In this document: one piece after another, positions 19,152 to 22,928 of the stretch
How positions within the stretch are numbered: the stretch's first letter is position 1
How the letters are laid out: the number at the start of each line of letters is the position of its first letter
Origin: Escherichia coli
Lineage (GTDB): Bacteria; Pseudomonadota; Gammaproteobacteria; Enterobacterales; Enterobacteriaceae
Length of the DNA stretch: 64,000 nucleotides
Strand: one strand, 5' to 3'
Assembly (NCBI RefSeq): GCF_045037415.1
Contig: NZ_CP173440.1
Program-made: the position numbers and the translations under genes
Notes under the pieces: generated by a model
The model's database searches: none
What the model saw: the letters and a program-made list of their open reading frames with translations, nothing else
Told to the model about the DNA's origin: nothing

Positions 19152-19769
19152 TTATTTATACAGCATTGATATGTAATGACATTTTTTTGTTTACATCCCC
19201 AAAAAACGTTCCTTAGTTACGAAAAATGATTCGCTGACTCTGTAAAATTGTCCTGCCTGTGATTAGCAACGGATTACCGGAGCAAATCTGGTGAGGTTGT
19301 TTAACAAAGTTACTTTTGATTGCGATAAACCTTGCGTCAGTGCTGGAGGTCAGAGTAGGCCAGATGTACGAACGGATGCACAAAGAAAATTGCCTTCGTT
19401 CCACTCTGTCCCTCTCTTCATCTATAGGCTCTTGCTTACACCTAGCGAAACCAATCTCGAACAGGGTTTATCGACAAAAGTAACTTTCCGTCCTGGTTAT
19501 TTACCTGGGCAAAGCGATCTCTTAGAACGAACGAGCGTACAAGCGTTGTCCTGGAACCAGAACCGCACAACGCATAGAACACTTTCCGGCATAAAAGTAA
19601 CTTTCTCAAAGTTGCGTTGTGACCAGAAAGTAAAACCGGAGAGTAGCTTTACGATAATCGACACTTAGCATGCAACATAAGGCCCCGTTGATCTGGGCTC
19701 ACTCGATGGCTTACGAGGTAACAAACATCGCAACTAACGGTAAGTTCGCATCCCTGTAAAAATGCATGG

Positions 19770-20050
19770 TGATACGTACGACGGTTAATCTTTTCACTTT
19801 TCATAGGATGAGCACAACAGCTATCTAACCATGCCAACCTACTTGAATAGCTATTAAGTTATTGTTTTATAATGTAAAACGCCACTATCTTTCTGGGGTT
19901 ACCCTGATACTGTGAACGTACAACCGTTAATTCTTTCAGATTAAAGTGACAATCTGCGTGCTTTGCACGTCCATAGGAACGTACGACGGTTAATGTTTTG
20001 AGCTGGAGAGGTCGGATGCGAATGACAACATACGACCGTTAATGTTTCTG
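19770..20050. repeat. iteron-like direct repeats downstream of rep
   Basis: Four copies of ACGTAC(G/A)AC(G/C)GTTAAT at ~19777, 19914, 19980 and 20029. Confidence 0.5.
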
Positions 20051-20233
20051 ATTGAACTTGTCTTGAATGAAGTTTATTTGCTGTAATATCAGATAGTTAC
20101 TGTGTTTTCGTGTAGAGAGGCAACAATGGACGTGTAGTTAAAAGTGCAGCAACAGCGATAAAAGTTACTTTTCGATAAGGGGACTATTCTTCCAGAGAGT
20201 CATCCCCCTCTTTTGTACGCCTGATTTCCTGAA

Positions 20234-21385
20234 TTAAAGCTCCTCAAAATCGGCATCTTCGACTTCAGATTCCGGTTTTCCTTCCCTCTGCAACTTATCG
20301 AGGGCATCCAGAACGCCAGCAATCTCAGTTTCTGAGTAACCTGCAGCCTTCAGCATTTTAAGTTTATGTATCAGTGCATCGTCATCAGCTGGGTTATGTG
20401 CAGCCGGGACCAGGATGGTCTTTTTGGCATCCAGCGAGGGACTTCGTTTAAGTATGTGGAACTTTATTGACCGACCAATCTTCTCTTCTCTGTATTGCAA
20501 GTAACCGATTTGCTCAAGCTCCTTCAACGAACGGCGAATGATCATGTTCTGAGAGGCTACTGGGGACGTTAGCCGTAAACGGTCGCGAAAGCGTTTCATT
20601 GAGATTGGTGCGGGGTCTTTAGGTAGGCTGGCGAGGTAGGTATACAAGGCCTGGGCGGACTCTTTCCTTTGCAGGTTATCAAGAGCCTTAAGGCGAAGAT
20701 AAACCTTATAGTCAATCTGATAGAGCTCCTGAATCCGGGGATCTCCCTCTATCTCAATCTCATTGGTTTTTATGTTGTACCGTGCCCAGTTAATGAGGCC
20801 GGTCGTGAGGGTTGAATCTTCATTGCGGAACTGAAAAGTGACCATTTTCAGTTTAATCATCGAAGCATCGATACGTTGTTTCATGGGCTTATTCGACCTC
20901 GAGGGGTCAAACCCACAATTTTTAAGGAAGGTGCTAAAAGGAAGCTTAATCCTTCCTGAGTAATGGCCATGGTCATGTAAAGAACGGACTATACCAAGCC
21001 ATACACGGAAATCTGTCCCCATATCAAGACGAGGGCTGGATAGCGATATTTCTTTGTAGCCTTCACTGGATGCGATCTGCATATGCTGTAAATCGCGTGA
21101 CACATCCATCGTAACCAAACCCTCTGGGAGGTTTTTCTTTGCTACGCCCGGAGGGGCCGGGACAAATACCCCAAGCCTCAACAAAGCAACAGGTTGAACG
21201 GTACCATTGTTACCAGGGGTAAAGTTAGTAACTTTACCCGTACCCCCTACGACATTGAATGAGAATGCGGCTTGTTCTTTGATTTCATTGTTAATTTTTA
21301 ATGAGATGGTCACTCCCTCCTTCCCGGTACTATGCTGAGGATAGGCTTTCATTCGGAGAACTATCATGGAAAACATTGCGCTCAT
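20234..21385 (-). CDS. Rep_3-family plasmid replication initiator (iteron-binding); 5' end uncertain or disrupted
   Basis: N-terminal NNEIKEQAAFSF and C-terminal R.F..R...I.....L..L..IGY...EKIGRSIKF pattern resemble RepE/RepA-type initiators. Iterons lie downstream. The ORF start overlaps the IS110 transposase start. Confidence 0.5.
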   Translation of the reverse strand: MSAMFSMIVLRMKAYPQHSTGKEGVTISLKINNEIKEQAAFSFNVVGGTGKVTNFTPGNNGTVQPVALLRLGVFVPAPPGVAKKNLPEGLVTMDVSRDLQHMQIASSEGYKEISLSSPRLDMGTDFRVWLGIVRSLHDHGHYSGRIKLPFSTFLKNCGFDPSRSNKPMKQRIDASMIKLKMVTFQFRNEDSTLTTGLINWARYNIKTNEIEIEGDPRIQELYQIDYKVYLRLKALDNLQRKESAQALYTYLASLPKDPAPISMKRFRDRLRLTSPVASQNMIIRRSLKELEQIGYLQYREEKIGRSIKFHILKRSPSLDAKKTILVPAAHNPADDDALIHKLKMLKAAGYSETEIAGVLDALDKLQREGKPESEVEDADFEEL

Positions 21386-22370
21386 TGGTATCGATCTGGG
21401 TAAAAACTCTTTCCATATTCATTGCCAAGATCGTCGCGGCAAGGCTGTTTACCGTAAAAAATTTACACGGCCAAAGTTAATCGAATTTTTGGCGACATGC
21501 CCCGCTACAACCATCGCAATGGAAGCCTGTGGTGGCTCTCACTTTATGGCACGCAAGTTGGAAGAGTTGGGGCATTTTCCTAAGCTGATATCACCACAAT
21601 TTGTCCGTCCATTCGTTAAAAGTAACAAAAACGACTTTGTCGACGCCGAAGCTATTTGTGAAGCTGCATCGCGTCCGTCTATGCGTTTTGTACAGCCCAG
21701 AACTGAATCTCAGCAGGCAATGCGTGCGCTGCATCGTGTCCGTGAATCCCTGGTTCAGGATAAGGTAAAAACAACCAATCAGATGCATGCTTTTCTGCTG
21801 GAATTTGGCATCAGCGTTCCACGAGGAGCTGCCGTTATTAGCCGACTGAGTACCCTTCTTGAGGACAATAGTTTGCCTCTATACCTCAGCCAGTTATTGC
21901 TGAAATTACAACAGCATTATCACTATCTTGTTGAGCAGATTAAAGATTTGGAATCCCAGTTGAAACGAAAGTTGGACGAAGATGAGATTGGACAGCGCTT
22001 GCTGAGCATTCCCTGCGTCGGAACACTGACAGCGAGTACTATTTCAACTGAGATTGGCGACGGGAAGCAGTACGCCAGCAGTCGTGACTTTGCGGCGGCA
22101 ACAGGGCTGGTACCCCGACAGTACAGCACGGGAGGTCGGACGACATTGCTGGGAATTAGTAAGCGAGGTAACAAAAAGATCCGAACTTTGTTGGTTCAAT
22201 GTGCCAGGGTATTCATACAAAAACTGGAACACCAGTCTGGCAAATTGGCCGATTGGGTCAGGGATCTACTGTGTAGGAAAAGCAACTTTGTCGTCACTTG
22301 TGCTCTGGCAAACAAGCTGGCCAGAATAGCCTGGGCCCTAACGGCACGACAGCAAACTTATGTAGCATAA
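21366..22370 (+). CDS. IS110-family transposase
   Basis: 334 aa; N-terminal IGIDLGK...DAEAI (RuvC-like DEDD motif) typical of the IS110 family. Element ends not delimitable (the family lacks clear inverted repeats). Confidence 0.8.
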   Translation: MENIALIGIDLGKNSFHIHCQDRRGKAVYRKKFTRPKLIEFLATCPATTIAMEACGGSHFMARKLEELGHFPKLISPQFVRPFVKSNKNDFVDAEAICEAASRPSMRFVQPRTESQQAMRALHRVRESLVQDKVKTTNQMHAFLLEFGISVPRGAAVISRLSTLLEDNSLPLYLSQLLLKLQQHYHYLVEQIKDLESQLKRKLDEDEIGQRLLSIPCVGTLTASTISTEIGDGKQYASSRDFAAATGLVPRQYSTGGRTTLLGISKRGNKKIRTLLVQCARVFIQKLEHQSGKLADWVRDLLCRKSNFVVTCALANKLARIAWALTARQQTYVA

Positions 22371-22928
22371 CGGCAGAAATACACCGGTTTAAAGAATCAC
22401 TGATCTGGTTTTGCGAATACTGATATTGATGATACTAACGGCCCACCGGCCTGTTGAGGAACCTGTAAAACGGAAAGGCTCATTGAAGCCGTATATTTTC
22501 TGGAGGTTCATCAGGCGCGGAACTCATCGAGGCGCGGGAATAAAATCCCATTCAGACGCCGGATAGATTCAAGCAAGCCAATTTATCGTCAAAATCGGTG
22601 TTGCAAAAACGGGAGTGACCATAGATTCCGTTTTGATGCAGACAAAGTCCTGGAGTGTATTCTGGCTGTGCATGCTTCTGGCCATAAGGTTCTGGTCATC
22701 GGACAACCGTCAGACCATGAATTGTGCATTGGTTTACTTTCACGCTTGCCAGTGGGTTATCGTGCTATGTTCGTGAATCTGATGGGCCATCAAGACCTGC
22801 AAGAGATGTCTGGCGATGGCAAGGACAAGGGTAATTCGGAAACAAAAAACCTCCTACATTAGGACATAGGTTAACTGGTACACTTCATCCCTTGAATTAA
22901 CGGAATAACCACAGGTGAGGGCATCTTC

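Follow-up and report, generated by a model that had tools for sequence, protein, structure and literature searches.

Interruption by IS4321 of the 5' Part of an IncFIB(pNDM-Mar)-Type rep Gene and an Apparent IS4321-Mediated Inversion Separating rep from Its Origin

The Escherichia coli DNA considered here, a stretch of 64,000 nucleotides of contig NZ_CP173440.1 (the window), contains a region that comparison of sequences identifies as the rep-side half of an iteron replicon of the IncFIB(pNDM-Mar) type, derived from a Klebsiella pneumoniae IncHI1B/IncFIB megaplasmid; in the large Klebsiella plasmid it is a secondary replicon. Its replication initiator gene, rep, is interrupted by the insertion sequence (IS) IS4321, and we consider the broken replicon to be a dead remnant, with a probability of about 78%. 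IS4321 inserted after rep codon 8, because codons 4-9 hold its target core, and split codons 9-362 from codons 1-8, the ribosome-binding site, the iteron-embedded promoter region, and the origin. Recombination with a second, identical, inverted IS4321 lying in a look-alike target would then have flipped a segment of ~25 kb, so that the rep body would now face a flank of clustered regularly interspaced short palindromic repeats (CRISPR)-Cas genes, with the origin half ~25 kb away. Deprived of the signals for transcription and translation of rep, the FIB replicon would most likely be silent, and the plasmid would be maintained by its IncHI1B replicon.

A listing of open reading frames (ORFs) gave a minus-strand ORF of 383 amino acids (20234-21385) and a plus-strand IS110-family transposase ORF of 334 amino acids (21366-22370) whose starts overlap by 20 nt. 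The preliminary description of this region read them as rep and transposase genes with overlapping start codons at 21366-21385. The overlap of the two ORFs stands, but it is not an overlap of two genes: rep stops at 21298, and the last 87 nt of its ORF (21299-21385, minus strand) are an artefactual 5' extension. The extension is a reverse reading of the left end of IS4321, and the overlap of start codons is thus an artefact of ORF calling. The rep body proper (20234-21298, minus strand) comprises codons 9-362 and the stop codon of an IncFIB(pNDM-Mar)-type Rep_3 initiator, and its protein is 100% identical to residues 9-362 of the intact Rep WP_004181841.1. Both the ATG of the longest ORF (21383-21385) and the GTG start chosen by the Prokaryotic Genome Annotation Pipeline (PGAP; 21311-21313) fall within the IS. 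The GTG lies inside the inverted repeat of IS4321 and yields a chimeric product, MTISL-KINNE..., which PGAP names a “RepB family plasmid replication initiator protein.”

The Rep_3 membership of the initiator was settled with Pfam. Pfam searches placed Rep3_N (E value, 5.6e-5) and Rep3_C (E value, 0.015) in the correct order, the WH1 plus WH2 arrangement of an initiator, and PF01051 is among the precomputed assignments for a cluster representative of ~100% identity (P0001) and for nearly all of 120 homologues. The homologues include RepA- and RepB-family proteins of E. coli and Salmonella at ~40 to 43% identity. A search of NCBIfam returned no family for Rep, and a sequence search of the PDB returned no relative. 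At the nucleotide level, rep and the iteron array downstream of it are 99 to 100% identical to hundreds of PLSDB records typed IncFIB,IncHI1B.

IS4321 occupies 1,327 bp on the plus strand (21299-22625), with its transposase gene at 21366-22370 followed by a 3' noncoding region of 255 bp (22371-22625). Its boundary is ambiguous by one T, and there is no target duplication. The subterminal inverted repeats, ATGGTCACTCCC and GGGAGTGACCAT, are perfect over 12 bp and are set 7 and 3 nt inside the ends, at 21306-21317 and 22611-22622. The 334-residue transposase scored 341 bits against the NCBIfam model for IS110, NF033542 (cutoff, 140), in keeping with a DEDD-type IS110-family enzyme, for which ~330 to 350 residues are expected, and PGAP calls it an “IS110-like element IS4321 family transposase” (WP_000427620.1). 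Elements of the IS1111 type are distinguished by subterminal inverted repeats and a long noncoding region downstream of tnp (PMC11187229), both of which are present here. A second copy of the same 1,327 bp, 100% identical, resides in the K. pneumoniae plasmid NZ_CP117741.1, which also carries an IS5075 copy that is 93.4% identical.

To define the interrupted sequence, we removed 21299-22625, joined window positions 20700-21298 to the right flank of IS4321 in NZ_CP091814.1, and searched PLSDB with the product. The reconstructed empty site is uninterrupted at 100% identity in NZ_CP061962.1 and contiguous in 136 of 430 PLSDB records, beyond which many further circular records start exactly at the rep ATG. 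The IS is present at the rep site in ~65 of the 430, and one record shares the further inversion. The left half of the target, GTTAATTTT on the plus strand (21290-21298), corresponds to rep codons 9-11 on the minus strand. In the intact gene of p283.4 (NZ_CP097238.1), 362 codons long and beginning MTVNKKTE/KINNE..., the position taken by the IS is that marked by the slash, after codon 8. The comparison thus places the insertion 24 bp downstream of the native ATG, within the coding sequence and not in the origin or promoter. An insertion on the origin or promoter side of the replicon had been proposed; this proposal holds insofar as rep is cut off from both, but the IS itself sits inside the gene, after codon 8.

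An independent, dated occurrence of the insertion comes from serial isolates of one patient. Plasmids p284.7 (NZ_CP097233.1, 284,698 bp) and p283.4 (283,371 bp) differ in length by exactly 1,327 bp, and p284.7 without the IS matches p283.4 around rep with 0 mismatches over 5,107 bp. The original report recorded “additional insertion of a 1.3 kb IS4321” within the patient, giving rise to pMR284.7-NDM, an intermediate for later plasmids (PMC9676029); its text does not state that rep was the insertion site, and the papers that mention both IS4321 and pNDM-MAR do not describe a disruption of rep. Among six IS-bearing plasmids we found two backbone alleles, distinguished by ~25 noncoding differences and 2 differences within rep that must be synonymous, because the annotated protein is identical on both backbones. 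The same six hold at least two IS alleles, which differ at ~39 of 1,327 positions, and all four combinations of IS and backbone occur. Either the rep site has been struck several times or the copies have been shuffled by recombination; given that the IS is site specific, repeated insertion is the simpler of the two explanations. Two further plasmids, CP154636.1 (189901-191270) and CP154635.1 (197272-198682), match the empty sites at 100% in two pieces, with ~171 and ~211 extra bp, respectively, at or near the positions targeted by IS4321; the extra sequence may represent small insertions or remnants.

Alignment with intact homologous replicons, which had been suggested as a check, located both the native rep ATG and the iterons upstream of it. 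In the majority form, represented by NZ_CP091814.1, the right end of the IS is followed by TTCCGTTTTCTTGTTCACAGTCATTCCTATCCTAA and then by iterons; on the rep strand this sequence reads TAGGATAGGA-ATG ACT GTG AAC AAG AAA ACG GAA and leads without a shift of frame to AAA ATT AAC, the codons with which genuine rep sequence begins in the window. The preliminary description had also allowed that the true start of rep might lie further inside the ORF, the IS then being merely upstream of an intact gene. There are indeed internal ATGs, such as that encoding M72 of the intact protein, and the N terminus is poorly conserved: the first ~28 residues vary across the family, in which conserved blocks start at G29 and at residues 41-55 (TVQPVALxRLGxFVP). 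These blocks, however, precede any internal ATG, and the annotation of intact relatives starts, 24 bp upstream of where the IS inserted, at an ATG that is preceded by TAGGATAGGA and is the point to which many records have been rotated. Even an internal start would leave the promoter region and origin removed. We therefore find an internal start scarcely credible; the native start lies outside the present ORF, on DNA from which rep is now separated.

The one-sided distribution of iterons is explained by the same comparisons. Four direct iterons (ACGTACGACGGTTAAT-like, 16 to 21 nt, plus strand) lie downstream of rep at 19774-19789, 19916-19931, 19979-19994, and 20028-20043, and by their position they may form the incA-like (copy-control) array of a P1/RepFIB-type replicon. 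A scan of the whole window with the iteron consensus, allowing ≤3 mismatches, gave 5 matches where 0.31 were expected, namely, the four copies downstream of rep and a match with 3 mismatches at 16530. Beyond the IS, to the right of rep, no iteron-like sequence was found anywhere in the window, in agreement with the preliminary description. In un-inverted plasmids, the DNA upstream of rep holds three iterons, two of them good and one degenerate, all oriented like the four downstream. The middle one is overlapped by a promoter-like site (TTAACA-18-TACAGT), and the same DNA has four GATC sites in 45 bp and a consensus DnaA box, TGTGGATAA. Direct iterons thus flank rep on both sides in intact and un-inverted relatives, four downstream as in the window and three upstream. 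A contiguous origin, promoter, and complete rep are not found in the window, whose rep is without codons 1-8 and whose 64 kb do not include the origin half. The one-sided arrangement is a property of the rearranged plasmid and not of the replicon: a further three iterons and the origin are found upstream of rep in intact relatives and in most of the IS-bearing relatives that we examined. It had been reasoned that homologous replicons with the same rep start, no upstream iterons, and no IS would speak against a disruption; the opposite was found, in that all the intact records we read carry the upstream ATG and the iterons.

The absence of the upstream iterons is attributable to the second event, the inversion, and not to the insertion itself. 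The IS in the window is followed by TTCCGTTTT (22626-22634) and then GATGCAGACAAAGTCC..., leading toward type IV CRISPR-Cas genes rather than toward the origin. Window positions 19200-22700 are 100% identical to NZ_CP117741.1 (341 kb, typed IncFIB,IncHI1B), the sole PLSDB record sharing this junction of rep, IS, and what we call site 2; ~65 PLSDB records align with the window over 19200-22634 and diverge beyond. The origin half is present in NZ_CP117741.1, with identity over at least 400 bp, and adjoins there the right end of the second IS4321, which is inverted and lies ~25 kb away. When the left flank of that second copy is joined to the right flank in the window, the result is site 2, which is uninterrupted at 100% identity in NZ_CP141558.1 and contiguous in 340 records. 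Site 2 falls at codon 84/85 of a gene for a 162-residue P-loop protein (GETGSGKS) upstream of the type IV CRISPR-Cas locus, and its right flank in the window (22626-22862, plus strand) consists of TTCCGTTTT and then codons 85-162 of that gene. Positions 22626-28397 of the window hold this part of the interrupted P-loop gene and, directly downstream of it, a type IV-like CRISPR-Cas gene set including Cas6-like, DinG-type helicase, and Csf2 genes.

Plasmids in which inverted IS copies occupy both sites with the intervening 24 kb un-flipped were also seen, for example, NZ_CP117746.1. In that record (1990-2069), the right end of the IS4321 in rep adjoins the end of a Tn21-type repeat (TTCCGTTTTCTGAGACGACCCC), a third type of junction. 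We considered NZ_CP117746.1 as the direct un-inverted precursor and rejected it, because the right flank of its rep IS is the Tn21-type inverted repeat and not the origin half. The third junction implies another exchange between IS4321 copies; such exchanges are therefore common in this plasmid family. An inversion of ~25 kb by recombination between two inverted IS4321 copies is thus evident from the junctions of NZ_CP117741.1 and probable for the window's own plasmid. Instead of a fixed inversion, the junction between rep and the CRISPR-Cas flank could represent either member of a pair of isomers that interconvert, or an artefact of assembling across a repeat of 1.3 kb, with the native order of origin, IS, and rep coexisting in the population. 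Two IS copies that are 100% identical and inverted would permit both flip-flop and misassembly, and a single PLSDB record shares the junction. We nevertheless hold this to be highly improbable, because the window and NZ_CP117741.1 differ in other respects (an ISL3-family IS and a resistance island) yet share the junction at 100% identity and because the third junction type in NZ_CP117746.1 indicates that such exchanges really occur.

The comparisons with intact relatives show the loss from rep of the ATG, the ribosome-binding site, and the iteron-embedded promoter region and, in the plasmid type represented by the window, of physical linkage to the origin as well. No sigma-70-like promoter facing rep was found within 1.1 kb at the scanner's threshold, and a looser scan near rep gave 8 of 12 matches at most. 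IncHI1B is also present in every IS-bearing plasmid examined. Several observations weigh against a dead remnant. The rep body is undecayed, its protein is identical from residue 9 on, and PGAP annotates the gene in all 30 top records. There is an in-frame GTG in the IS end with AAGGAGG just upstream, although at a spacing of 2 to 3 nt. The first ~28 residues are unconserved in this Rep family, so that a chimeric MTISL-Rep might be able to fold and to serve the displaced origin in trans; Rep_3-class iteron initiators are known to act in trans. Finally, the position given here for the origin half in the plasmid of the window is taken from NZ_CP117741.1, which differs from the window by the ISL3-family IS and the resistance island.

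These points would accommodate a replicon that is split but working, in which the IS supplies a start (the GTG at 21313 or an ATG upstream of it) and weak outward or antisense transcription, so that an N-terminally swapped Rep, freed of iteron autoregulation, fires the displaced origin in trans. The reading frame does run through the IS end, the rep body is intact in all the records seen, and a weak promoter-like site (ATGATA-18-TATCCT) is present at 21367-21338. That match is at chance level, however, and the standard scan found no promoter facing rep within 1.1 kb; the Shine-Dalgarno-like motif is 2 to 3 nt from the GTG instead of the usual 5 to 9; the presence of IncHI1B in all such plasmids means that FIB function is not required; and the events are recent, so that an undecayed rep carries little weight. 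On balance a working split replicon seems unlikely. A related and more speculative idea is that insertion and excision of IS4321 at rep codon 8 constitute a reversible, RNA-guided on/off switch for the FIB replicon, or that a chimeric Rep drives the split replicon in trans outside iteron autoregulation. IS1111-type elements excise precisely, and the difference of 1,327 bp between p283.4 and p284.7, the four allele combinations, and the undecayed rep are compatible with this idea but do not require it; we think it quite improbable. If there were such a switch, incompatibility or host-range behavior would be altered with no loss of sequence. We prefer the reading of a dead remnant, in which the rep ORF that looks intact, the iterons downstream of it, and the typing as “IncFIB” would be left over from recent events. 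The overall structure is ordinary and is explained by known mechanisms; nothing about it is mechanistically new.

Why IS4321 entered rep can be approached by comparing its targets. The canonical target was taken from the IS5075 copy in NZ_CP117741.1, which sits in the canonical repeat CTTAGCGTGCTTTATT/TTCCGTTTTCTGAGACGACCCC, and from the Tn21 inverted repeat, which we take to be the canonical target of IS4321. In the orientation of the IS and with slashes marking the cut, the Tn21-type inverted repeat target reads GTGCTTTATT/TTCCGTTTTCTGAGACG, the rep target TTGTTAATTTT/TTCCGTTTTCTTGTTCA, and site 2 GATGACATT/TTCCGTTTTGATGCAGA. All three have TT/TTCCGTTTT in the same orientation, and the rep and canonical targets share 13 bp. 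The core of the Tn21 repeat is contained in rep codons 4-9 (AAC AAG AAA ACG GAA AAA), which on the other strand give TT/TTCCGTTTTCT. Agreement of the rep site and of site 2 with the 38-bp terminal inverted repeat of the Tn21 family is limited to 11 to 13 bp around the cut. Neither is a transposon end; they are secondary, off-consensus targets of IS4321, and the identity of the element is unaffected. These two natural nontransposon targets define a minimal core, TT/TTCCGTTTT, that should be useful for predicting off-target activity of RNA-guided recombinases.

For elements of the IS1111 type, the target is specified by a seekRNA, an RNA from the noncoding region downstream of tnp with two short segments that match the target's top and bottom strands, the top-strand match being 5' (PMC11187229). 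Following that model, we propose a candidate, bridge-RNA-like guide region at 22467-22500 (plus strand), in the 3' noncoding region of IS4321. The segment AAAACGGAAA (22467-22476) is predicted to pair with the target top strand TTTCCGTTTT; it is followed by a small hairpin, GGCTCATTGAAGCC, and then by TATTTTC (22494-22500), predicted to pair with the bottom strand. Guide positions are kept in the rep site at 10 of 10 and 6 of 7 positions, and in site 2 equally. The 10-nt and 7-nt guide-like segments are in the order of the seekRNA model, their matches overlap in the target, and a guide match of at least 9 nt arose in 5.8% of shuffles. The noncoding region was predicted to fold no better than shuffled sequence (z = -0.7), and an Rfam scan of 19000-23000 at an E value of ≤1 returned no family and no match to a bridge or seek RNA model. 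The fit of the guide segments to the seekRNA model is only suggestive.

Four sites matching AAAGTNACTTT had been described downstream of rep. They are present, at 19306, 19477, 19594, and 20161 (19306-20171, with no strand), but they are local members of a plasmid-wide family, and a role specific to the replicon was rejected because the window holds 30 such sites. The 30 copies of the palindrome, usually A-AAAGT-N-ACTTT-T/C, are distributed over 5265-63657 of the window and compare with an expectation of 0.08; further examples are at 5265, 6666, 13234, 51440, 55365, and 55382. The first 200 kb of NZ_CP117741.1 carry 82 sites, none of them in the resistance island at 140 to 170 kb. In the window, 17 of 30 sites lie outside ORFs of ≥100 amino acids (20 of 30 counting three inside a spurious ORF in the spacer downstream of rep), a class of sequence that makes up only 25% of the window (binomial P of ~2e-4). 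The sites cluster locally; for example, 870 bp downstream of rep hold 4 of them, and 750 bp at ~108 kb of NZ_CP117741.1 hold 6. The sites look operator- or centromere-like, and the palindrome is probably the binding site of a global regulator encoded by the backbone or of a ParB/KorB-like protein. A literature search for the motif returned irrelevant matches only and no description of it. Inside the rep coding region there is also a perfect 11-nt inverted repeat with a 1-nt spacer (21217-21239; GGGTAAAGTTA-G-TAACTTTACCC), which contains AAAGT and ACTTT half-sites at a spacing wider than that in the dispersed palindrome.

The window is distinct from NZ_CP117741.1 in two respects, the presence of an extra ISL3-family IS and the absence of a 24-kb resistance island. 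The ISL3-family IS (17836-19151, 1,316 bp), absent from NZ_CP117741.1, encodes a transposase of 406 amino acids that scored 332 bits against NF033550. Its terminal inverted repeats start GGGTCTTCCC, it is bounded by an 8-bp target duplication, TTATTTAT (17828-17835 and 19152-19159), and 155 bp separate it from the outermost AAAGTTACTTT site on the downstream side of rep. The resistance island of NZ_CP117741.1 (143.4 to 167.9 kb, ~24.5 kb) carries catA1, IS5075, IS26, blaNDM-5, aph(3')-VI, qnrS1, and blaCTX-M-15; its counterpart in the window, 34692-36165, is ~1.5 kb of other sequence.

These findings bear on how such plasmids are typed. PGAP calls the decapitated rep an intact “RepB family” gene (WP_040210162.1), and in one record with a different IS allele the call starts deeper in the IS (WP_216662213.1). 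MOB-suite still types plasmids with the disrupted rep as IncFIB, with ~65 PLSDB records affected. For ~15% of a clinically important family of NDM and virulence plasmids, then, PlasmidFinder, MOB-suite, and PGAP report an intact IncFIB/RepB despite the loss of the start, the promoter, and sometimes the origin, and multireplicon status, incompatibility, and host range inferred from typing alone may be wrong. Copies of IS4321 also act as portable homology, and the three right-hand junctions of the copy in rep should aid the reconstruction of rearrangements in outbreak genomics. What appears worth keeping from this region is the recurrent noncanonical target of IS4321 in rep, the annotation and typing artefact, and the plasmid-wide palindrome.

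Compared with known systems, the intact form of the replicon resembles P1 oriR-repA-incA and RepFIB (P307/F), in which a DnaA box, a GATC-rich region, and iterons with the promoter precede rep and a second iteron array follows it. The intact relatives likewise have a DnaA box, a GATC-rich region, iterons over the rep promoter, a Rep_3 initiator, and a second, downstream iteron array; they differ from P1 and RepFIB in having 3 upstream and 4 downstream iterons of another consensus. Relative to the IncFIB(pNDM-Mar) replicon of pNDM-MAR-type plasmids, rep and the downstream array are the same, whereas the window is without the first 8 codons, the promoter, and the origin. The IS behaves like canonical IS4321 and IS5075 in its orientation and cut position relative to the core (...ATT/TTCCGTTTT...), its length of 1,327 bp, and its lack of a target duplication. 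It departs from them in its targets, a 13-bp look-alike in the 5' coding sequence of a replication gene and one in a small P-loop gene, with unrelated flanks outside the core. Like the IS1111 and IS110 elements that use seekRNAs or bridge RNAs, it has a long noncoding region downstream of tnp in which a candidate top-strand match lies 5' of a candidate bottom-strand match. Finally, the inversion resembles others in resistance plasmids that arose between copies of an IS, in that the flipped 25 kb is bounded by two identical copies in inverted orientation and the flank pairs are exchanged as expected; a transposase-catalyzed, RNA-guided exchange would leave the same sequence as inversion by RecA-dependent homologous recombination.

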